Below are positions 38,055 through 54,914 of a DNA stretch of 64,000 bases, in pieces. The notes beneath the pieces were generated by a model, which was not told where the DNA came from, did no database searches, and saw nothing but the letters and a program-made list of their open reading frames with translations. The DNA lies in the IMG/VR virus record IMGVR_UViG_3300042389_001675; one strand, given 5' to 3'. The DNA is from an uncultured virus (IMG/VR IMGVR_UViG_3300042389_001675) (Duplodnaviria > Heunggongvirae > Uroviricota > Caudoviricetes). Positions within the stretch are counted from its first letter, which is position 1, and the number at the start of each line of letters is the position of its first letter. Made by a program: the position numbers and the translations under genes.

Positions 38055-39680
38055 TTAACCTCGCAGCAGGTTGAGATAGTTTTTGATATCTCCATTTGGC
38101 ATGGACACCAGTTGAAACAACTCCGGATGTTTCAAGGCCAAGCCAGAAAAGATAGCTTCCTCTGTGCCGATAAATCCGGCGGCGAGGGATTGATCCAGAA
38201 ATTCATTGTACCGTGGATACACGGCATTAATGGAGTCAAGCGTGCCACCAAAGAGCGTGGCCCGGCAGACAAAATCCGGAATTTGACCGCAAAGTTGCTG
38301 AAATCCGGCACACGCGTAACCATGCATTTCAGTTTCACAGCGGTACGGAAAACGTGTCATGAAGAACTGCTCCGGCATCTCGTGCAGACGGCAGCGTGCA
38401 ATCGAGGCAATATTAAAGCTCTTACAGATTCCGGCATCGATCCAGTAAAACCGGCGTGCGCGGAAAGTTTTGGCTTGAGCGCAGCGGATCAGGCAGTGTA
38501 GCTTGAACAAGGTTAAACCGATGTAATCCGGTGACCGGATGATACTGTGCTGCATCCAGGCCGCCTGATTTTGCCATTCAGGTCGACTGCAGATCTCGGC
38601 AATCCGGGGAAATTCCGGTTGCTGCCGGATGACCTGCGGATCCAGTGGAATTACCTGTATGGGTTTTCCGCCGGTGCGGGCCAGCAGCAATTCGTAATAG
38701 CGGTTATCGACAAAGATGACGAGGGGGTAGTTCAGCTCCAGCAGTTTATCCAACCCGCTGACGTAGTGTTCCATGAAGTTGCGCTGATCGTGCACTTCCC
38801 GGTTGATGTCCAGCAAACCGGTAACCAGAACAAGTTCGTGGCTGCGGAGCATGGGATCCGGTGTCCGCAACGCGAGTGCCATGGAGTCCATAGCGCGGTA
38901 ATCCAGGGCCGGAAAAAAACGATGCGGTAAGAGTTCCCGCGGATAAAGCGTCTCTGGCGTATCACCTTCCCGGGTACGTTTATGCGCCATCAGACTTTCA
39001 TGGTCGCCCAGATGCAGCACATAACGATCCTTGAGAAAAACGCCACGGAGCCCCAGGGAGTAGAATTTACGATCCACATTCCATTCGGTGTAGAACTGCT
39101 CCACCCGCCCGAGCAGAATCAGGTCTTCACGTCGTTTCAAGTTGGGACTGCCGTGCCAGCAAAACCAGTGCAAATGGCTGGGAGAGATTTGCCAGGGGCG
39201 CTTATAGAAGTAAGCGTCTTCCACCAGTTCCGGGGTGTACGAGTCGTAACCTTCCTCTTCAAACGTGCGCCAGGAAAGGTCGACCGAACCAATATGCCGA
39301 TGTTTTTCCAGGATTTCTTTGCTGCGCTGCAGATAACCTGGGCGGTTATCATCCGGCTGGGTGAGGAACAACCAGTCCTCTTCCAGGTAAAAAATATAAG
39401 GCGTGTGGCAAAAGGATGTCATGAAATCCTTGGCCCACCATAGCCCGCGATTTTCGGGAAAACAGACAATATCGGCAAGGTGGCCATAGTCAGCCACCAG
39501 CCGATCGAAAACTTCCGGTATGCCGCTGTCGTCGACAATCACCAGTTTTGTCACAAGATCCCGGGTTGCCAGAAACGAATCCATCGTGCGTCGTAGCAGA
39601 TGGAGCCGATTGCAACTAATGACAAACGTGGTAATGTCGCTTTCCGGTTGGTCAATCGTGTGAACTTGCAGTTTGCCCAC
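38055..39680 (-). CDS. Bifunctional GT2-like plus HtrL/YibB-like glycosyltransferase
   Basis: VISCNR..IVDDSG..YLEEDW; second domain [23 protein letters not shown]. Start uncertain (GTG 39680 preferred). Confidence 0.8.
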
Positions 39681-41295
39681 GGATAAATACTCGAAGATTG
39701 TTGGTGAACCAGAGCAGATACTGATCCTGCTGTACCGCGGCAATCAGCTGCTGTTCCAGCTGCGTATCCCGCTTCCAGCCTTGACTGAAGAATTTTTGCT
39801 GCCAATAGCCAGGTAACTGGCAATTAATATGTCCGTGCCCGCCCTGTCCGGGCTGAGCTGCTGTCCAAATCAATATGCCGTCCTCTGCCACGTTCCGTGT
39901 CAGGCTGTCCACAATCAGATCCGCCTTTTCAGCTTCAATGTGTTCGGCTACTTCCAGGCAGAGTGCAATTTCGGCAGGTGGATCCAGCTGTAAGTCAAAC
40001 AGGCTCTGTTGTGTCAGGTTAGGTTTGTTTTTGACCCGATCGTCAATATCGTAACCGTGGGCATCTTCACCCAGCTCCGTAAGTGCATCTACGTAAATGC
40101 CAGGGCCGCAGCCGATATCCACGACCTTGCGGCCGGTGAACTGGGTGTGGATAAACTTGCCAATGCTTTTCGCCATGGGCGTTTCTTCGGCAATAATCGT
40201 CTGGTAGTCGCACGGAATCCCGATCTGGTACCAGCCTTTACCGATGTGTACGTTCATCACATCCTGAAAGTATTTTTCATAAAGCGGGGCAATGTTTTCC
40301 AGGGAAAACTTGGTAGCAAACGCCCGGCAGACTTCCGGCTTAATTTGATCGACCGACTGCGCAGCCTGCACGAAATCAGCAAAAGTCCGACAACGGAAAC
40401 CCGTCACGCCGTGCGGATTGTTTTCGGTAAACGCGCCCCAGTCCGTAGTAATTGTCGGCGTACCGGACAACAGATTCTCTACCTGAACGCCCCCAAACGG
40501 CTCTACGTACATACTGGGGACAAAACTGGCCTTGGCTCGACTCATCAACCGTTTACGGGTTTCCAGGTCGGCATAGCCGACGTATTCCACGTGCGGCGGC
40601 AGCGCATAACCTTCCTCTTTCTGTCCGGCAATAATCAGCTTGGCGCCCAGGTGTTGTGTTACCTGAATTGCAACATTGACTCCCTTGCCGTCGTACACCC
40701 GGCCAAGGTAAAGGAAGTAATCGTCTTTTTGATCCGAGTAAGTAAATTCATTCAGATCAAAGTAGTTCGGGATTACCGTGTCGTACCAATCCTGCGCACA
40801 GGTACCGACAGCATGCAGGCCGTAATAGGCGTGGTAGATGGCATAGGATTCAAACACCTTCCAGCGTGCCCAGTGTCCTCCGGCGTAACCGATGCCGGGC
40901 TCCACGCAGATCATGTCCGGATGTGCGTCGCACACCGGCCGAACCCCGGCACCCCAGAACGGCAGGATAAAGTCGCGATGACGTTTGCGTTTGCCGACCT
41001 CATGGATGGCGTTACGGTAGAACGTCTGGTACGCGTGGTCATTGATGTCAAACTTGAAAAAGTTCTTTTTCCAGTCGTAAGAACCGTACGCAAGTTCCAG
41101 ATCACGATTGGTAGTGACGGTCACATGTTCATGACAATCGAGATCAGAATCCTCGTGACCGTAGTGAATGATTTCATGCCCGCGAGCCTTCATCATCTTG
41201 GCAAATTTAACTACTTTTTGCGTGTATGCACACGCAATGTATTCCTTGTTTGATACGGTGTGCGGCAAGCCCAGCAGGTGAAAACGGAAACCCAT
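39652..41295 (-). CDS. GT4 (GT-B) glycosyltransferase fused to a class I SAM methyltransferase
   Basis: [35 protein letters not shown]-terminal [21 protein letters not shown]. Confidence 0.9.
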
Positions 41296-41309
41296 GTGCA
41301 ATCCTTTCC

Positions 41310-41362: not shown

Positions 41363-41379
41363 TCACTGCTGGCGGTAAC

Positions 41380-42279
41380 TCAAATTAAGCCGCCCGTACC
41401 GTTACCAGTTAAGTTACTAGAAATTGATGTAGTGCCGTTACGGGTATCACCAAAATCTACGACAGTCACGTTACCGGTGGTGTTACCCAAATCTGAGTCT
41501 GACGTATTTCCGGTAATATCTACCGACTCGGTAATTGTGCCGTTGCCCGTAATGTTACCGGTATCTGTAATGTTGCCTGTGTCCGTAATGTTACCGGTAT
41601 CTGTAATGTTGCCTATGTCTGTGATATTACTGGTATCTGTAATGTTGCCTGTGTCCGTAATGTTACCGGTATCTGTAATGTTGCCTGTGTCCGTGATATT
41701 ACCAGTGTCCGTACCATTACCCGTATCAGGCAGTGGTGGTTCCGGGGGTGGCGCCCACAAGGCAGGCAAGCTACCAATCCACTCTTGCACGGTCGGCAGC
41801 GGTGTTGTGCCTGCGGTTACACCCGCAATCAAGTCACTGAATTCCTGCCAGATTTGATCACGGTAAGCCGCCGCTTCGTTGGCTTCGTCCTGATAGGTAG
41901 AGATACCTGAGAGCTTCCAGCTGGTTGCCGAGAGAATGCTGTCGTACTGGCGGTGCTGGACCTGGCGGTCCAGAAACGGACTAATTGCGCGCCCAATTTC
42001 CGCCAGTCGGCGTTCCGCGAACTGCTGCTGTTCTTCGGGCGTCAATTCAACGACGGACCATAGCTGGTTGACCGCAGCGCCAGTAAATTCAAGTATTTCT
42101 ACTAACTTTTGCGTGGTATCGGTATAGCTCGGTACGGCCGCCGCGTTAAACGGATACCAGTCGTATTGGCTTAATACCTCAGGCGGAAGCAGGTAAAAGT
42201 TGCTGATATTCTGATAATGCTGCGGCAGCTCCGTAGGCGCCCCGATAGCACCACTCACGACAAGGCAGTAACGACTCAT
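41380..42279 (-). CDS. Tail-fibre-assembly-like protein with low-complexity N-x-T-rich tail
   Basis: Start ATG 42279 (ATGA overlap); RQYDSILSATSW..EANEAAAYRDQIW resembles fibre chaperones; (DTGNIT)n tail. Confidence 0.7.
   Translation of the reverse strand: MSRYCLVVSGAIGAPTELPQHYQNISNFYLLPPEVLSQYDWYPFNAAAVPSYTDTTQKLVEILEFTGAAVNQLWSVVELTPEEQQQFAERRLAEIGRAISPFLDRQVQHRQYDSILSATSWKLSGISTYQDEANEAAAYRDQIWQEFSDLIAGVTAGTTPLPTVQEWIGSLPALWAPPPEPPLPDTGNGTDTGNITDTGNITDTGNITDTGNITDTSNITDIGNITDTGNITDTGNITDTGNITGNGTITESVDITGNTSDSDLGNTTGNVTVVDFGDTRNGTTSISSNLTGNGTGGLI
41548..41727. repeat. 18-bp tandem repeat x10 encoding DTGNIT-type hexapeptides
   Basis: Ten units read directly, with synonymous variation and a few non-synonymous changes. 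Confidence 0.95.
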
Positions 42280-45200
42280 GCGACACCCCATTTGGCCAAG
42301 GAATACGCCGACTGCTGACTCAGTTGTGTGCTATTGAAAGCCAGCAAGTAGGCAGAAATTTCATAAATTGGATTATTGATGAATCCACCGTCACCGTTGC
42401 CCAGCTGACCGACGGTGGCGCTTTGGGTCGGATTACCCGGACGACTGGCGGTGGTCTGCGTAGAACCTTGCTGTACGCCGTTGACGTAGAAATAGTGGTC
42501 ATTGCCCACTCTTACTACCGTAAATCGATAAACTTGCCCGGCGGTGGGCGTCCAGCTTACCCGCACAAACCCGTTAAATCCGCCACCATTATAATGCAGC
42601 CCCAGATATCCGGCACCGACAATACCGTTTGAACCGTAGCCAAAACCCCATTTTGATGTGATGCCTGGTCCGTTACTTTGTCCAATTAAAACACCGCCCG
42701 TCGAGCTTGCTTTGTGTACAACATCGATGGTGAAATCACCACTAAACACCAGATTCCAGCCAACAGTGCTGGCGACAGTCAGGAATTGACTTGAACCATT
42801 GTAGGTGGTACCGCTGAAGCCGTTTTGCCCGCTGACAGGTGCCAGCCAGGTAGGGCGATTCGCCAGCGTTGTCTGGGTTGCGTGCCGGTTGCTGCCGGAT
42901 AAATCACTCCACTGGTAGATCGACTGTCCGGCCGTGTTGACATTGGTGGCACCGGCGTCGGTAAATAGGCTGCTGCGCTGGGCGGCGTCCAGCCAGAGAA
43001 CCGCACCCGAAACAGGAAGGGATGCGTAAGGATCGTAAAGATCTGGATAGGCGGAAGAAGAGGGTGTGAAGTTGCTTACATACCGGGCTCTGCCTTTGGT
43101 GAATCTGACTTCGTCGATGTATCCGTTAAAAAAATCGCCCATAAGACCGCCCGCATTATATCTATCCGCGCCAATCACGAACGGATACGCATTGTCATTT
43201 AACGCTAAAGCTGTTGTTGTGGACGTTCCAGCTGTGCCATTTAGATAAGGCGTTATCGTTGAACCATTTCGTACAAGTGCCAGATGAGTCCATGTATTCA
43301 AACTGACCGTACCGCCAGACACGCCACTGGCAAGCTCCCAGCTTGTACCGGCACTTGAAAGATAATAGACATATGAAGTTCCGTTTACTGCTAGTATGTA
43401 AGGTCCAAATCCGGCTACTTTGGAAATTACTGCTTTAAATCCACTGGACGATGTTATATAAACCCACGCTTCAATTGTAAAATCACCGGATCCGACTTCA
43501 AAGAGCGTGTTGTCGTCAATAGAAAGATAACTACTGCCGCTAATTGAAGCACTGGCACCACCAAATTTGCTTTGCGCTGTACTGACTTGTGCTGTTCCGG
43601 ATGCAGTGACTGTTAACGCATTGGGTGAACTATCGATAAACGTGGTTGAACCGTTTGTCCCATCCATATGTAGCAGCAAACTGGTGCTGGAGTAGTACGG
43701 ATCAGCTGCCGGGTTAGACGCGCCATTTGAAAACGCCGCAGTCTGCGGCACAAAGTTAGAGGTATATCTTGCCGACTTGGAAATACGAAACTCTTCGATG
43801 TAGCCGTTGTAGGCGAACGTACTGTCTTGTGTATCGATAAAGCCGCTAAGTCGCAGAATGTTATCAGTTAAATTTGTCGACAGCGTGGCGGTTGCGCTGG
43901 AAACACCGTTGATGTATAGCGTAAGTGTAGTACCGCTTCGCACCAGCGCCAGGTGCTGCCAGGCGTTAGGCGTGCGACCAGAAGCCACGGACAGAATCGT
44001 GGCGTTATTACAATACACCAAAAAACCATTACCATCTTCGCGAAACATCAAGCCATTTGTACCGGTTTGAGCAGTGCGGAAATCCACCATACCCCGCAGC
44101 GAAGACCCTACAGTGCGCGAAAAGAACCAGCCTTCTACGGTAAAGTCGCCAGCGCCTAAAACAAAGGCATTGTTGGCCGCAGCGGTGACCGTATCGCCAT
44201 TACCATCAAAACGCCCCATGCCCGTACCAAACTTGGGCGCTATCGCCAGAATGCGGGCGTCACCGACAGGCGTAAATGTAGGATTTGTCAGGCTGCTGTC
44301 CACAAACGTGGTCGAGTCATTTGTACCATCAAAGTGCAGTAAGGTTGAGACATTGGCAAAAAACGGATCATTGGTAGGGGTAGGGAGTGCATCCGGAAAC
44401 GCTGCTGTTGGTACAACAATTGAACGAGCAACACCTTTGGTCACTCGCACATCATCAACAAAACCGGAAAGCGATCCGCTGGTATTATCAACTTCTGCAC
44501 CAATCACGAGTCCCGTGCTGGTAGCATCAACAACGGCGTCCGTATCCGTCACTGTACTGCCGAGTTGTGTCCCATCGCGGAACAGTCGCCAAGAATTGCC
44601 GGAGCGAGTTACCGCCACGTAATACCATGTATTTATCGCCCAGCCCGCCGTTGAACCTTGCGAAAAATCAACAACTGATACGTTTGAACCATTTACCGCC
44701 GAAAACCTTAACCCTGGTGAACTTTGACTGGTCCGTGTGTCGTAATACAACAACCACCGTTGTGCTGCCCCTGAGTTTCCGTGGGTAATCAAAACAGAAT
44801 AGCTATTGGACGGCAAGGCGGTAAACCTGACCCACATTTCAATCGTGAAATCACCGGAACCGAAGTTAAACCCAGCATTGAACGGAATCGTCAGAACATT
44901 GCCTGCGCCATTAATTGCTGCAGCGCCTGTACCGAACTTGGTAACTGCTGTCGTAATATTTGCCGTACCAAGCGCAGTGACTACCAGGGCGTTTGGTCCG
45001 CTGTCGATAAAACTTGTACTGCCGTGTGTACCGTCAGCATGCAGCAGCAGCGAGACTTTATCAAAGTAGGGGTCAGCTCGTTTAAAATCCGGATTTGAAG
45101 TCGAAGTTACCGTGAAGTTTGCCGTGTACCTGGCAATGCCTTTGGTGATTTTTAAGTCATCGATCAGGCCATTAAATGCTTCTGTTGTGCCCGAACTATC

Positions 45201-48200
45201 CAACCCAATCCGGGTACTACCCCCGCCTGGCACGTAATATCCGTTATAACCGCTGGAAGTTGTCGTTTGCTGATTACCGTTAATGTAGAATTTGACAAAA
45301 CCATTCTGCCGTACGGCAGCAAGGTGGTACCAGGTATTTGCGACGAACGAAAACGCACAGCGTTCATTGTCTGCCTGTCCGATTTTAGCTACGTTCAAAC
45401 CGTTTGCTGCGGACAGGTAAGATTGCCCGATCCGGAAGAAAAAACCGCCTGCGGTACTGTTACGCAAAATCACCATCGAGCTTGCGACGCTGTAGAGGTA
45501 CACCCAACATTCAACGGTGAAATCCCCGGTGCCGAAATCAACCGGGTTGGATGCAAGTTCCAGATAGTCTCCATTACCATCAAACTCCGCCGCACCGCTA
45601 CCGAACCTTGGGTTAGCTGTGCTGATTTGCGCGTTACCGTAGGCGGTTACAGCCAAACTGCGTGGACCACTGTCGGTAAAGGCTGTACTGCCATGCGCGC
45701 CATCCATCCGAAGTAACAGACTGACGTAGCTGGCATAAGGATCATCCGCCACGAGCGCCGGAGTAGTTGCGGCGACAGGGAAACGCGGCGTAAAGTTGGC
45801 GGTGTAGAGGGCTTGTCCTTTATATATCAATACATTCTGCAGCTGCCCGTTAAATCTACGGCCTGTCTGCGCAGACTCATTCGCCCAACCAATATTTAAT
45901 GTACCGGTTTGTGAAATATTAGATGAGTTCGTGATAGTTGAACCATTTACACCGTTTAAAAAAGTCTTTAACGTAGTACCTGCGCGACAAACCGCAAAAT
46001 GATACCAAGTATTAGCAGTCACAGTTGCATCGTAAGTTTCAACGCCCCCGCCAACTCCAATACCAAACCCAAATTTAGAATTGTTCTGAACAATTTGCCA
46101 TCCGCCGTCAAAGCCACTTGTCAGTGTACCCATCGGTGTTTTTAAGACGCTTAAATCCGCGCTTTTTATCCAGCATTCAATTGTGAAATCGCCTGTCCCG
46201 AAATTAACTTGTGGTGCCGTAATAGAGAACCACTGGCTGCCGTTAAAGGCTAAAGCTTCTAATCCGCCTCGGCCGCTTGCAGGTGCCACCAGCGTCGGAC
46301 GGCTTGCCGCTGTCGCCTGCACCGCGTGCTGATTGTTACCGGACAGATCATTCCACTGATAAATTGCCTGCCCGGAATTGATTGCGTTTACAGCCCCAGC
46401 ATCCGTAAACAGGGAAAGTTGACGAGCGGCGTTTAGATGTAGAGCTGCGCCAGGGATGACCGCCGCATCTGCTACGTTGTAAAAATCCGGAAAAGGTGTG
46501 GTCGGTACGGAGAAATTACCGGCATACCTGGCCATCTTGGTGATGCGTAGTTCGTCCACATAGCCATTAACCGAAAAGGTATTGTTAAACGCAGCCCCAA
46601 TCCTGACGTTACCCGAATTGGTATAGGATGCCGTGTCGGTGTAGTTTGAACCCTGCTGTGTGCCGTTTACATATAACTTTGTGACGCCGCTGAATCGTAC
46701 TAGCGCGATATGATACCAGGTGGCCGCCGAAATGGCTGAACTCGTAATTGCATCGATGCTGCCGTCGTACAAGCGCAACGTGCCATTTGACGCCATGTAA
46801 ATAGCACGAGTAGCACTGCCCAGCTTGTCGATAATATTCTGCTGTACTGCTGCGTTATTGGTATAAAACCAGAACTCGACCGTGAAGTCGCCCGTACCGA
46901 AAGTAACAGAGGTGGTAGATACTGGTTCAAGATAATCTCCGCTGCCATCAAAATAAGCACTGGAATTACCAAACCGACTGCGTGTGGTACTTAACTGCGC
47001 ATTACCGGTAACATTCGTACTGATTCCCGCCGGTCCGCTATCCAAAAATGTCGTACTGCCATTTACACCATTCATGTGCATAAGCAGCGTGACCTGATTA
47101 AAGTACGGATCGGAAAACGGGATTGGCCCTGGATCAGCAAAGGGAGCTGCAGGTGGGGTGAACGCTGCCGTATACAATGCCTCTTTTACAATCCGCAGTT
47201 CATCAAGATAACCGTTAACAAAGCGGGCATTTTTGGGGTAATCTGTACCCAGTAAGAATGCCCCGTCCGTAAAGCTATTCGACGTTGTCCAGGTAGAACC
47301 GGTCTGGGTTCCATTTAAAAACAGTCGAATTGCCGTACCAGATCGACAGACTGCCACATGCGTCCAAGTATTTGTTGTAACTGCGGCGCCGAGAATTTGA
47401 ACACTACCCTGGTACACAAGGATTCGTGATGAATCGTCCGTACCAATAACAAAACCATTTCCGTTAGGATTGGTTTCGCTGGTCCGACAGTCAAAAATGG
47501 AATAGCGGCCGGAAATTGTGCTGTAAAACCAGAATTCGACCGTAAAGTCACCCGTGCTGAAGTTAGTGATATTCGTATTTGTCGCTGAGATGTAATCACC
47601 ATTACCGTCAAAGTAGGCACTGGAATTGCCAAACTTGCTCTGTGTTGTGCTGATCTGCGCGTTACCGTTTACCGTCATTGGAATACTGTTCGGTCCGCTG
47701 TCGACAAAATTGGTAGAACCATTGGTGCCGTCAAAGTGCATTAACAGACAGGTACTGTTGAAATACGGATCGGCGACAGGTTTTACGCTGTAGTCTTTAA
47801 ATGGCTCTGCTTGTACAACAAACCCTGCCTCGTAAAGAGCTTCGCGCACGATTCGAACTTCATCAATCTTACCGTTGAAGTAATATTCAAACCCGGTATA
47901 GGCCGTGGCCCCAATGCGAAAAGCCGTATTCACGTTTTGGATGGCCGTGGCGTTGGTGCCTGTTCCCAGAATTGCGCCATTCAGGTAGACGGTAAGTGTC
48001 GTCCCGTTTCGCACTACGGCCAGGTGATACCAGGTGTTTAAGTCGAATGAGTAGTTTATGGTTGTTGCCGTAGGTCCCGCGTTCGACGCAAACAACTCAA
48101 CGCTAATCGACGTAAAACTGGATGCCGTGCCAGTTAGCACCACGCTAAACTGCCGACCACCCACAGCATCCTTGGCAAAAATTGCCGATTTGTACTGACC

Positions 48201-51200
48201 GGAATAATTTGAAGCATAACCGGTAATGTAGATCCAGGCCTCAAGCGTGAAGTTTCCGCTGCCAAATTCAAACAATTCGTTATCCGCGTATTCCAGATAA
48301 TCGCCGTTACCATCCAGGCTAAGGCAACCTGAACCGAATTTAGCGCCGGTTGTACTGATCTGCGTGTTACCGCCCACGGTAGGTACCAGACTATTACTGC
48401 TGGAATCAATAAACGTTGTCGATGTGTTGGCACCGTCGAAATGCAGCAACAGGCTGGTTTTGTCTTGATAGGCTGTTGCAGCCACGTTCGCCGTAAACGG
48501 CGGTGTAAATTTAGTCAGGTACAAGGCTTCACGCGTGACCCGCAGTTCATCAATCCGACCACGAAAATACTGGTTGTAAAGCGGTCGACCGCCGATAACT
48601 GCAAGATTATTGGAGTTGGTCAGCGTACCGCTATTGCTGGCTGACCCACTTTCCAGGCCGTTAACATAAACTTTGTAGGAACTGCCGTTTTTTACGTACG
48701 CGATATGGTACCAGGTATTCAAGTTAAGCGGATTAGTGGACGTAGTGGCGTTAAAAAGCCAGGAACCATTTCCCGCCAAAAAGTTGAGATAACCGCTACT
48801 CAAGACGCCGATATAGATACCCTGGGCATCGGTGGAGTGGGCCGTGGTAAAAATGGTACCTGGATCGTTGGTAAAGGCGGTGGGATAAATCCAGCACTCG
48901 ACCGTAAAATCCCCTGCACCAAAGTTAAACAAGGAGCTACTGCTCACCGACAGGTAATCGCCGTTACTACTGAAGACCGCAGCACCGCTGCCAATTTTAA
49001 AACCTTTGGTGGTGATCTGTGTGTTACCGAACGGCGTCACCGTCAGTGCATTCGGACTGCTGTCTACAAACGTGGTACTACCTTCCACGCCCTCCATGCG
49101 CAGTAACAAGGCGGTGCGCGTGTCCGGCAAAGTAGGGTCAGCTAACACATTGACCTGATCGACAAAGGCCGCGGGCGACGGTGTGAAATTGCCGACGTAA
49201 CGTGCGGCTTTTGTAATACGGAGTTCATCTACTTTGCAGTTAGCATCAGTAAACAGTTGAAGTGTGCCTTGCACGTAATTTGTTGACGCCGTGACACTGC
49301 CAACCAAATTACCGTTCACAAACATGCGCATGTTTGTGCCTGACCGCGTCAACGCCAGGTGATACCAGGTATTCAGGCTGGGTCGCCAGCTTATGGTCAT
49401 CTGTCCTACGATACGATTGGACACGACCAGGCTGTTGGGCGGTATAGAAAAGTAAAACCCACCTGAGCCATTGATGTACCAGGAAAACCCGCCAGATGTC
49501 GCTACGTCTACCAGAGAAATTTGCCCAGTAGGCCAGGCACTGAAGTTGATCCAGAATTCCACAGTAAAATCGCCCGATCCGAGCGCAAACAGCGGATTAC
49601 TGGCGACCTCCAGGCGGTTACCTGTGCCGTAAAGCCGACAGGCACCTGAACCAAAGCGAGGTTCGTTTGTACTGATCTGTGCACGACCTACTGCAGTCGG
49701 AATTAACTTGTATGGTCCGCTATCAGTAAAGGTCGTACTACCCTCCACCCCGTCAAAATGCAGCAGCAAACTTGTCTTGGTGAAATAAGGATCAGCCGCG
49801 GCAGCCGCAGGCAAATCCGGCAACGCAGTCTGCGGCGGTGTAAACGCATTTAAGTAACGCGCAACACGTGAAACACGAAAATCATCGATAAGTCCATTAA
49901 GATAAAGTCCAGGAAACGGATTACCGCGTGCACCTACCGTAATGTCCGTGGACGGTGTATTAATGATACCAGCTACAGTTACGGTACTGCCTGCCTGTAC
50001 TCCGTTCCAGTAGGCCGATACGGAACTTCCCGAGCGCACAAAGGCAAAATGATACCAAACACCCGTTGTCGGAGTTGCCGGTAAAACATAAGCATTACCA
50101 TAATCGGTGGAACCGACTGACAGTGTCGTCTCCAGCTGATAAGTCCCGGTATTGTTGTAAAGGTAAAATTGAAACGAAGAAGCTGATGCCGAGGCTCCTC
50201 GCGCAAAGAAAAAACCGGCGTAATTTCCAGTTGTTGGTAACGAGTTGAAATAAACCCAGCCTTCTACGGTAAAGTTACCCGGAAATCCAAAGAGCGCCGC
50301 GTTGCCTGAAACCGTCAAATAGGACGAACCGTTCAGACTTAATGCCGCCGTACCGTATTTGGGGCTTGAGGTCGAAAGCGTTGGTGAACCTGCGCCGGTT
50401 GCAATTGTCAGCGCATTAATACTGCTGTCAACAAACGTCGTAGATCCGTTACTACCGTCCATGTGCAGCAGCAGACTGACGTCGTTAAAGTAGGGATCGG
50501 TTACACCAAAGTCCGGAAAAGCCGTGGTTGCAGGCGAAAAGTTGGCGGTATACCTGGCTGCTTTTGTAATTCGAAACTCGTCCAGGTAGCCGTTAAGTTT
50601 GAGAAACGTGGCCACAGAACCTACAGTTAACGTACCGGTAGCGGAAAAATTGTTACCCCAGCCGGAAGATGCCGTAATTGTCTGCGACACACCGTCTACA
50701 AACATGTAAATCGTGGAACTGCTGCGTACTACCGCGACGTGGTACCACTGGTTTAAGTTTGGTGTCCAGTTAAAATAGGCATAAACCGAACCGTCGCCGT
50801 GTCTTCCTAAGCGCAACCGTTTTGTGCCGCCTGAATCTTCAAGCGCAAACCACCACATGCTAGTGTTTGCGGCAAATTCACTCGACTGGGTGTTGGCGAT
50901 CCCCATGAGCTGATTTGTACCCGGCAAAGCTGAAAACCGGATATACGTCTCAATGGTGAAATCACCGGTACCAAACGCAAAAGCGGCGTTACTGCCTAAA
51001 TTCAGCTGATCGCCCGTGCCGTCAAAGCTCCCGGCACCAGAACCCACCCGTGGCGCTGCTGTGGTAATTTTGGCATCACCAGCCGCGGTGATGGTAATGG
51101 CATTAGCACTGGAATCCGTAAACGTTGTGGAACCTTCTGAACCGTCGAAATGCAGCAACAGGCTGACAGCGCTGAAATACGGATCGCCGCTGTCGCCCGT

Positions 51201-51233
51201 TAAATCCATCGCAAGCTTGAGTGCGGTAGTCAT
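42276..51233 (-). CDS. Giant multi-LamG/concanavalin-A-like domain virion protein (13 domains)
   Basis: 2985 aa; 11 repeats of DPY...SLLLH.DG..GSTTF.DS...DFT.E.W...WYH.A.VR...G.IDE.RI plus 2 units starting L.L.AA..W.DLSG. Confidence 0.92.
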   Translation of the reverse strand: MTTALKLAMDLTGDSGDPYFSAVSLLLHFDGSEGSTTFTDSSANAITITAAGDAKITTAAPRVGSGAGSFDGTGDQLNLGSNAAFAFGTGDFTIETYIRFSALPGTNQLMGIANTQSSEFAANTSMWWFALEDSGGTKRLRLGRHGDGSVYAYFNWTPNLNQWYHVAVVRSSSTIYMFVDGVSQTITASSGWGNNFSATGTLTVGSVATFLKLNGYLDEFRITKAARYTANFSPATTAFPDFGVTDPYFNDVSLLLHMDGSNGSTTFVDSSINALTIATGAGSPTLSTSSPKYGTAALSLNGSSYLTVSGNAALFGFPGNFTVEGWVYFNSLPTTGNYAGFFFARGASASASSFQFYLYNNTGTYQLETTLSVGSTDYGNAYVLPATPTTGVWYHFAFVRSGSSVSAYWNGVQAGSTVTVAGIINTPSTDITVGARGNPFPGLYLNGLIDDFRVSRVARYLNAFTPPQTALPDLPAAAAADPYFTKTSLLLHFDGVEGSTTFTDSGPYKLIPTAVGRAQISTNEPRFGSGACRLYGTGNRLEVASNPLFALGSGDFTVEFWINFSAWPTGQISLVDVATSGGFSWYINGSGGFYFSIPPNSLVVSNRIVGQMTISWRPSLNTWYHLALTRSGTNMRMFVNGNLVGSVTASTNYVQGTLQLFTDANCKVDELRITKAARYVGNFTPSPAAFVDQVNVLADPTLPDTRTALLLRMEGVEGSTTFVDSSPNALTVTPFGNTQITTKGFKIGSGAAVFSSNGDYLSVSSSSLFNFGAGDFTVECWIYPTAFTNDPGTIFTTAHSTDAQGIYIGVLSSGYLNFLAGNGSWLFNATTSTNPLNLNTWYHIAYVKNGSSYKVYVNGLESGSASNSGTLTNSNNLAVIGGRPLYNQYFRGRIDELRVTREALYLTKFTPPFTANVAATAYQDKTSLLLHFDGANTSTTFIDSSSNSLVPTVGGNTQISTTGAKFGSGCLSLDGNGDYLEYADNELFEFGSGNFTLEAWIYITGYASNYSGQYKSAIFAKDAVGGRQFSVVLTGTASSFTSISVELFASNAGPTATTINYSFDLNTWYHLAVVRNGTTLTVYLNGAILGTGTNATAIQNVNTAFRIGATAYTGFEYYFNGKIDEVRIVREALYEAGFVVQAEPFKDYSVKPVADPYFNSTCLLMHFDGTNGSTNFVDSGPNSIPMTVNGNAQISTTQSKFGNSSAYFDGNGDYISATNTNITNFSTGDFTVEFWFYSTISGRYSIFDCRTSETNPNGNGFVIGTDDSSRILVYQGSVQILGAAVTTNTWTHVAVCRSGTAIRLFLNGTQTGSTWTTSNSFTDGAFLLGTDYPKNARFVNGYLDELRIVKEALYTAAFTPPAAPFADPGPIPFSDPYFNQVTLLMHMNGVNGSTTFLDSGPAGISTNVTGNAQLSTTRSRFGNSSAYFDGSGDYLEPVSTTSVTFGTGDFTVEFWFYTNNAAVQQNIIDKLGSATRAIYMASNGTLRLYDGSIDAITSSAISAATWYHIALVRFSGVTKLYVNGTQQGSNYTDTASYTNSGNVRIGAAFNNTFSVNGYVDELRITKMARYAGNFSVPTTPFPDFYNVADAAVIPGAALHLNAARQLSLFTDAGAVNAINSGQAIYQWNDLSGNNQHAVQATAASRPTLVAPASGRGGLEALAFNGSQWFSITAPQVNFGTGDFTIECWIKSADLSVLKTPMGTLTSGFDGGWQIVQNNSKFGFGIGVGGGVETYDATVTANTWYHFAVCRAGTTLKTFLNGVNGSTITNSSNISQTGTLNIGWANESAQTGRRFNGQLQNVLIYKGQALYTANFTPRFPVAATTPALVADDPYASYVSLLLRMDGAHGSTAFTDSGPRSLAVTAYGNAQISTANPRFGSGAAEFDGNGDYLELASNPVDFGTGDFTVECWVYLYSVASSMVILRNSTAGGFFFRIGQSYLSAANGLNVAKIGQADNERCAFSFVANTWYHLAAVRQNGFVKFYINGNQQTTTSSGYNGYYVPGGGSTRIGLDSSGTTEAFNGLIDDLKITKGIARYTANFTVTSTSNPDFKRADPYFDKVSLLLHADGTHGSTSFIDSGPNALVVTALGTANITTAVTKFGTGAAAINGAGNVLTIPFNAGFNFGSGDFTIEMWVRFTALPSNSYSVLITHGNSGAAQRWLLYYDTRTSQSSPGLRFSAVNGSNVSVVDFSQGSTAGWAINTWYYVAVTRSGNSWRLFRDGTQLGSTVTDTDAVVDATSTGLVIGAEVDNTSGSLSGFVDDVRVTKGVARSIVVPTAAFPDALPTPTNDPFFANVSTLLHFDGTNDSTTFVDSSLTNPTFTPVGDARILAIAPKFGTGMGRFDGNGDTVTAAANNAFVLGAGDFTVEGWFFSRTVGSSLRGMVDFRTAQTGTNGLMFREDGNGFLVYCNNATILSVASGRTPNAWQHLALVRSGTTLTLYINGVSSATATLSTNLTDNILRLSGFIDTQDSTFAYNGYIEEFRISKSARYTSNFVPQTAAFSNGASNPAADPYYSSTSLLLHMDGTNGSTTFIDSSPNALTVTASGTAQVSTAQSKFGGASASISGSSYLSIDDNTLFEVGSGDFTIEAWVYITSSSGFKAVISKVAGFGPYILAVNGTSYVYYLSSAGTSWELASGVSGGTVSLNTWTHLALVRNGSTITPYLNGTAGTSTTTALALNDNAYPFVIGADRYNAGGLMGDFFNGYIDEVRFTKGRARYVSNFTPSSSAYPDLYDPYASLPVSGAVLWLDAAQRSSLFTDAGATNVNTAGQSIYQWSDLSGSNRHATQTTLANRPTWLAPVSGQNGFSGTTYNGSSQFLTVASTVGWNLVFSGDFTIDVVHKASSTGGVLIGQSNGPGITSKWGFGYGSNGIVGAGYLGLHYNGGGFNGFVRVSWTPTAGQVYRFTVVRVGNDHYFYVNGVQQGSTQTTASRPGNPTQSATVGQLGNGDGGFINNPIYEISAYLLAFNSTQLSQQSAYSLAKWGVA

Positions 51234-54914
<3,681 letters not shown>

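Follow-up and report, generated by a model that had tools for sequence, protein, structure and literature searches.

An Asn-x-Thr-saturated tail on a chaperone-like fibre protein of a large lake phage, a candidate acceptor for host N-glycosylation

To our knowledge, the cytoplasmic N-glycosyltransferases (NGT) described so far act on adhesins of Gammaproteobacteria, and phage virion glycosylation, where described, uses phage enzymes. For mycobacteriophage virions, Freeman et al. in 2023 reportedly placed the sugar in O-linkage at C-termini. HMW1C, ApNGT and AaNGT are described as cytoplasmic GT41 N-glycosyltransferases with adhesin substrates (PMC10507012, PMC3012730); in AaNGT, Arg177 and Asp215 are reported to read the Thr at +2 (PMC10507012), and an HMW1C-like enzyme of Yersinia has been reported as an O-GlcNAc transferase (PMC11329713). 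In mycobacteriophages, virion glycosylation is attributed to phage-encoded enzymes with capsid and tail tube as targets (PMC12363180). Other described cases are the AglB N-glycosylation of haloarchaeal virus systems (PMC10384203) and the methylation of a phage tail protein by MepM (PMC13445384), which the system proposed here would resemble in that the virus depends on a host modifying enzyme. As presented in these reports, AglB is an oligosaccharyltransferase that sits in the membrane and modifies exported proteins, MepM adds a methyl group, and neither is a cytoplasmic NGT acting on a tailed phage. A literature search of partial coverage (few subscription journals) returned no N-x-S/T glycosylation of a tailed bacteriophage and no HMW1C in Planctomycetes.

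The locus considered here lies in a stretch of 64,000 nt (hereafter the window) within a 75.8-kb contig of a large lake phage, 36% complete. It corresponds to a minus-strand ORF (42291-41380) of 303 aa whose likely start, Met5 at 42279, shares an ATGA with the stop codon of the LamG gene upstream. By inspection, its N-terminus displays no signal-peptide-like stretch. The protein can be divided as follows:

41755..42279, minus strand: folded domain (residues 5-179), tail-fibre assembly/chaperone-like (DUF4376- or Phage_tail_APC-like)
41728..41754, minus strand: proline-rich linker (residues 180-188), found in many homologues too
41548..41727, minus strand: ten 18-bp units of the DTGNIT type, sequons 10/10
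41380..41547, minus strand: non-repetitive end (residues 249-303 and stop), sequons 7/7

Residues 189-303 (41727-41383) contain 17 Asn, all of which occur in N-x-S/T and none with Pro, followed at +2 by Thr (n=16) or Ser (n=1). This array had been reported, in the same order, in a sequence-only reading of the window and is confirmed by recount. Ten of the sequons are located inside the 18-bp units and seven outside, the latter with G, T, T, V, G, L and G as middle residues. Enrichment was upheld by composition shuffles, since 200,000 shuffles of the whole tail never gave more than 14 sequons; the full count was reached by 22/200,000 shuffles for the 55-aa non-repeat end (7/7) and by 3/200,000 for a control in which the repeat was collapsed to two units (9/9). 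When a binomial test was applied to the 63 minus-strand ORFs of at least 100 aa in the 75.8-kb contig, the chaperone ORF (P = 2e-9) was the sole one with P < 0.03, and a genome-wide sequon excess was absent from this contig, from G001-G005 and from the GT41-bearing phages described below. It had been proposed that repeat expansion alone does not account for the pattern. Aligned to the 18-bp consensus, the seven sites outside the repeat agree at best at 10-12 of 18 bases; they may thus be old repeat copies and are not fully independent. The tail motif is regarded as real and selected. With respect to the repeat itself, contigs from four other lake runs agree exactly with the window, three runs covering the repeat core (41632-41694) and one 41379-41529; none spans the repeat, so that the ten-unit copy number rests on one contig, and doubled read depth over the repeat was observed in only one of the four (X4).

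The folded domain was modelled by AlphaFold with a pLDDT of 80-96, and its family counts 3672 representatives. One of its five Asn is in a sequon, and ca. five sites are conserved in the closest homologues. No match to Pfam, NCBIfam or PHROG was found for this domain, nor any match to the chaperone in GenBank phages, and a single-sequence locus scan was also without match. Its predicted-structure neighbours in the Atlas are DUF4376 (TM 0.58) and a Phage_tail_APC cluster (TM 0.59), and the gene occurs directly after tail-fibre genes in the window and in relatives. In these respects it resembles tail-fibre chaperones of the DUF4376 type. DUF4376 proteins of the Alteromonas phages V22 and A5 are described as fibre chaperones, and Mu Tfa as remaining at the fibre tip (PMC10579305). 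The present protein resembles these in gene position right after the fibre genes, in size (ca. 175 aa) and in predicted fold (TM 0.58), and may likewise be able to stay on the tip; it differs from them, as described, by having no Pfam match at cut-off and by its clade-specific sequon tail.

Homologues carry the sequon bias that the first reading would have predicted. All 18 close homologues are 175-202 aa long; sequons account for 27 of 42 Asn in their tails (6.8 expected) and for 79 of 211 in their domains (31.5 expected), counts whose independence is overstated because the rows are kin. In distant family members the figure is 171 of 946 Asn (129 expected). A tail sequon is present in 74 of 78 distinct close homologues with a recognisable end motif, a set taken from 101 further loci after five distant ones were left out. 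Most of these tails are short, the Pro linker being followed by only 5-23 residues; among 41 distinct sequences of this short type the residue after Asn-Gly is Thr (59), Pro (26) or Asn (23) and no other, and NIT, NVT, NST and NET variants are found too. The motif is kept across domains that are 42-60% identical. In a quick tree of 143 out of 168 proteins (25 were dropped because of length or because no end call could be made), sequon tails occur in 22/28 rows of one clade (SH-aLRT 95) versus 5/115 elsewhere. A second jumbo lineage (L058, L059, L092) has an expanded (SNGT)n tail in which 13 of 15 Asn are in sequons, and an internal NIT site that is kept in 75 of the 78 short-tailed rows has been lost in both long-tailed lineages, which represents two events only. 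From these comparisons, the 17-sequon tail is an enlarged form of a clade trait that has been expanded twice with different units. Being both conserved and expanded twice with different units, the sequon bias favours a sequon-reading modification. Outside the clade, five distant members (P0045, P0051, P0121, P0149 and P0037) have separately gained short C-terminal N-x-S/T ends, that of P0037 having three sequons within 12 residues.

Neutral slippage, by which an ancestral Asn-Gly-Thr end was expanded during replication with sequons as mere passengers, is a distinctly improbable explanation. It is consistent with both long tails being tandem arrays, with many short tails being near copies of one another, with the existence of tail-less members within the clade (L009 and P0017) and with the frequency of Asn-Gly-Pro or Asn-Gly-Asn in short tails (49/108). 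It does not readily account, however, for the diverged outer part, in which seven of seven sites have kept the motif with four different middle residues, nor for the persistence of the motif across the 42-60% identical domains and in unrelated proteins of the cassette. In addition, changes among the 18-bp units spare the motif, those at Asp, Asn and the +2 Thr being all silent while amino-acid changes fall at positions 2, 3 and 5, although numbers are small.

Structure prediction gave a mixed answer. AlphaFold modelled residues 199-255 as a three-sided beta-helix with a strand every six residues, at low confidence (pLDDT ca. 60), and residues 258-303, which include 6 sequons, as disordered (pLDDT < 50). 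Foldseek gave no match in PDB at E 0.001 and no fold match to the tail model reached Z 8; weaker matches were obtained with an autotransporter passenger (Z 6.3, rmsd 3.4 A, 100 aligned) and a bactofilin (Z 6.1, rmsd 2.8 A, 79 aligned), and left-handed beta-helices, whose hexapeptide period the tail repeat shares, appeared at Z 6-7 but with an rmsd of 11-12 A. The tail repeat has no hexapeptide Pfam match and a weak one to phrog_5070 (E 2e-4), and a degenerate DNA pattern of the hexamer repeat retrieved no further viral contig. The motif could thus be structural and free of modification, with Asn-x-Thr forming a turn into a strand, the hexamers building a solenoid with Asn and Thr ladders, and the motifs of the fibres being fold signatures. 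This is judged unlikely, yet it is the rival that deserves the most attention. The six-residue strands, the two weak fold matches and the phrog_5070 match speak for it, and the beta-solenoid alternative raised earlier is to that extent retained for the hexamer repeat. It does not explain the short tails, since a stretch of 5-23 residues behind a Pro linker is too short for a solenoid and still has the sequon; nor does it fit the different period of the (SNGT)n array, the disordered end, the low pLDDT of the solenoid, the lack of a match at Z 8 or the poor superposition of left-handed beta-helices. A solenoid and glycosylation may also coexist.

Rows of Thr-Gly-Asn and Thr-x-Thr bear a likeness to ice-binding faces. 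An ice- or surface-binding solenoid would agree with the regular Thr and Asn rows of the model and with the lake-water origin of the holders of the chaperone (no RNA dataset is among those listed), but no antifreeze protein occurs among the 50 fold matches listed, and the short tails, the (SNGT)n array and the fibre sites would be left without explanation, making this the most remote of the possibilities considered.

Whether sequons extend beyond the chaperone was addressed in the fibre cassette to which it belongs. Two large genes precede it in the window:

42276..51233, minus strand: LamG-repeat fibre-associated protein of 2985 aa with 13 Laminin_G_3 stretches
51234..54914, minus strand: collagen-repeat tail fibre of the same cassette (Collagen Pfam)

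Neither displays a clear excess, the LamG protein having an N+2 ratio of 1.30 but a D+2 ratio of 1.57, and the collagen fibre 8/36 sequons (ratio 0.80). In the fibre proteins of relatives the sequon ratio exceeds 1.3 in 43 of 57 loci and is at or below expectation in 8; two small adaptor-like clusters reach 89/148 and 50/70, and head, portal, terminase and lysis clusters pooled give a ratio of 1.0, with control ratios scattering by cluster from ca. 0 to 2.5. A comparison of 5029 reading frames puts the window tail first for consecutive sequons (17 in a row), followed by the SNGT tail (13) and the fibres of relatives (8-11). The fibres of T4 (37/212, ratio 0.99) and P-SSM2 (98/502, ratio 1.05) have a longest run of 4 and are devoid of general bias, which argues against sequons being a common fold signature of fibres. 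The structural explanation nevertheless gains from a repeat-built fibre of jumbo phage G004 (L125:4071-10922, 2284 aa), in which 85 of 184 Asn are in sequons that may be a fold signature, and from D+2 ratios, which are raised in some fibre clusters and lie above N+2 in LamG clusters. In one fibre repeat of relatives, Thr is retained after Asn (117) and also after Asp (16), so that the fibre sequon signal is partly structural.

Several further observations were made in the window and its relatives. Small virion-associated proteins rich in sequons occur in two relatives, one at L090:19083-19646 (7/13) and two that match phrog_1084 (L090:5066-5431, 5/6; L004:6601-6963, 6/10). When window:41380-54914 is compared with the sister jumbo phage G022 (L163), the fibre, the LamG protein and the chaperone all differ and the flanking genes are kept; by this gene comparison, the fibre cassette is a swapped host-recognition module. 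Elsewhere, window:14421-15338 encodes a fusion of a peptidoglycan-binding domain and a matrixin (M10) peptidase that is possibly an unusual lysin, window:60442-63066 a probable prohead-protease-like protein with an intein-like LAGLIDADG insert, and L001:8087-11182 an RNA polymerase subunit fused to a Pro-rich repeat tail.

The tail does adjoin a glycosyltransferase gene, as had been pointed out, the GT4 gene ending 79 bp downstream. Two transferase genes are found on this side:

39652..41301, minus strand: GT4 glycosyltransferase fused to a methyltransferase (PF00534, phrog_3408)
38055..39743, minus strand: GT2 and HtrL/YibB-like protein (context only)

That these phage enzymes are dedicated initiators for the tail appears very unlikely. 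The GT4 gene is on the same strand as the tail and GT2 genes flank the fibre cassette on both sides; in mycobacteriophages, phage-encoded enzymes are described as glycosylating the capsid and the tail tube (PMC12363180), and the contig is only 36% complete. The two families, however, are neither GT41 nor STT3 and differ from known sequon readers, and a search of the 50 longest of 67 viral records bearing the chaperone detected GT4 in none and GT2 in one, with neither present in the 13 near-complete relatives. The sister G022, whose chaperone (176 aa) has no tail, has GT2 genes, the GT2 and HtrL/YibB-like one included, and a GT4 that is 84% identical and is separated from the chaperone by two small genes. 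Thus, the earlier idea that the tail is tied to the neighbouring glycosyltransferase, and with GT4 in particular, is not borne out; that of an N-glycan brush survives in part, in that the sequon bias is conserved and was expanded twice, but its link to GT4 and GT2 fails. Both adjacent enzymes are, from their distribution, not likely readers of the tail. Substrates of PglB-type oligosaccharyltransferases have Asp or Glu at -2 of the sequon, a feature observed in 0/17 tail sequons, and STT3 was found in none of five phage records, three of them incomplete, with positive controls in 4 archaea.

A better candidate belongs to family GT41. A weak GT41 match in the jumbo phage G004 corresponds to a protein of 621 aa; among solved structures, its best relatives are N-glycosyltransferases. 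A profile built from 43 relatives aligns with the full length of ApNGT and AaNGT (E 5e-54 to 9e-51) and matches SPINDLY at 7e-22, and full-length profile matches were obtained with 3q3e, 8j30 and 8p0o. This candidate family (A4) has an all-alpha domain and a GT-B fold without TPR; among the donor-site residues, Lys426 and Asn511 are invariant and His256 and Asp515 occur in at least 90%. At the column of AaNGT Asp215, most rows have Asp or Glu. No Arg is found at the Arg177 column, a difference from AaNGT; in the bacterial clade and that of the small phages a Lys or Arg is displaced from it by one to two columns, and in the G004 clade there is none. Arg139 is nearly invariant in the family. Named bacterial members are from Isosphaeraceae, Gemmataceae and Planctomycetota, and the Isosphaeraceae clade is sister to the small-phage clade (FastTree).

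On the viral side, the family comprises 17 loci, three of which are small phages with an HMW1C-shaped GT41 within the structural operon (L136:9683-14246, L135:7560-9332 and L147:9641-11270). By terminase and portal, these three are sisters of the phages with N-x-T tails, the terminases of the two that were compared being 72-75% identical to those of the latter; none displays a sequon excess in the available sequence. In L136 the GT41 gene occurs between lysin and head genes and is followed by a GT2 of the same structural block and by a further transferase-like gene. One large phage (G009, G010; L138/L139:9518-13413) has two tandem divergent HMW1C-like genes, and in L141, L144, L148, L149 and L150 a gene of ca. 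390 aa precedes GT41, that of L141, the only one tested, being a C-methyltransferase by Pfam. The G004 gene (L121:73-1938) lies in a 231-kb jumbo phage that also has seven GT2 matches, and its product forms with ten close relatives a separate clade with no basic residue near the Arg177 column. G004 and the (SNGT)n phage are 92-97% identical over most of their shared DNA; the chaperone of G004 has no tail. Sequon counts in GT41-bearing phages are 121/642 (132 expected) in G010, 34/165 (36) in G017, 33/253 (32) in G007 and 8/144 (17) in G018; in G004, 202/669 exceeds the 164 expected, but its D+2 ratio is higher.

The enzyme and the tail seldom occur together. GT41 is present in one of the 50 chaperone-bearing records, absent from the window's 36% complete contig and found in none of its three sister jumbo phages (positive controls 2/2), and the window's sheath matched 0/17 GT41-bearing records, a search with no positive control run. 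An NGT hidden in the missing DNA of the window's jumbo clade is disfavoured by the three sisters. As the N-x-T phages, the window's contig and its sisters are mostly without GT41, the enzyme would have to be that of the host, and, given the occurrence of GT41 in sister phages as well as in named Planctomycetota, the most plausible reader, at about even odds, is a cytoplasmic N-glycosyltransferase of the host.

Host assignment is indirect, because no prophage was found in the named genomes scanned with the chaperone and lysin alignments. The integrase of one small relative has as its only named bacterial kin two Planctomycetota, at ca. 30% identity, and a search of plasmids with an integrase gave no match. 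Planctomycetota are the likely hosts, as we infer from this distribution.

Altogether, the balance tips slightly towards the tail being an N-glycosylation acceptor tag that was amplified on a tail-fibre chaperone and is read by a host NGT. Weighing against it are the GT41-bearing phages without general sequon excess, the tailless chaperone of G004, the partial retention of the AaNGT dyad in the family, the O-GlcNAc activity reported for the Yersinia enzyme (PMC11329713), the unbiased fibres of the window and the beta-helix modelled for the hexamer repeat. The gene would come from a host-recognition cassette common to small temperate and jumbo phages of freshwater Planctomycetota, and the chaperone, having no apparent export signal, would be made in the cytoplasm, so that its reader would have to be a soluble GT41 of the HMW1C/NGT type, normally that of the host and sometimes a phage copy. 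The exposed tail would receive mono- or short glycans at its Asn-x-Thr sites, as many as 17 of them in the present case; the adjacent GT4 and GT2 might at most extend these glycans. If, by analogy with Mu Tfa, the chaperone stays on the fibre, these glycans would be displayed on the adsorption apparatus, where they may aid solubility, protease resistance or masking.

Such a tail resembles in its working an HMW1C substrate as described, with its N-x(not P)-S/T rule, its preference for Thr and its many sites per protein; the presumed cytoplasmic setting, the possible placement on a beta-helix and the full-length relatives of the enzyme in Planctomycetota and sister phages extend the analogy to the system as a whole. 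It departs from it in that a phage fibre chaperone takes the place of the secreted adhesin as putative substrate, and in that a linked enzyme is not found, the window's contig and its three sister jumbo phages having no GT41. With mycobacteriophages, as reported, it would share sugar on exposed virion proteins and a low-complexity C-terminal extension as acceptor; unlike there, the acceptor would be an Asn sequon on a fibre cassette, most carriers encode no glycosyltransferase, and GT4 and GT2 do not travel with the target as phage glycosyltransferases do in that system.

More tentatively, and with somewhat less than an even chance of holding as a whole, phages of freshwater Planctomycetota, small and jumbo, may share an Asn-x-Thr code in this cassette, from fibre shaft and adaptor to chaperone tail, that borrows the host cytoplasmic NGT, from which two jumbo lineages made a tunable brush of 13-17 sites and gave up the internal site. 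The 115-residue tail offers a natural multi-site acceptor with which planctomycete GT41 could be tested, and for cytoplasmic glycoengineering. If the proposal is true, the motif would allow the host type of uncultured phages to be told from sequence alone, the host in which a virion was last made would, through its glycosylation state, bear on infectivity or host range, and a tailed bacteriophage would be N-glycosylated by a host enzyme, through a sequon-reading NGT pathway in Planctomycetota.
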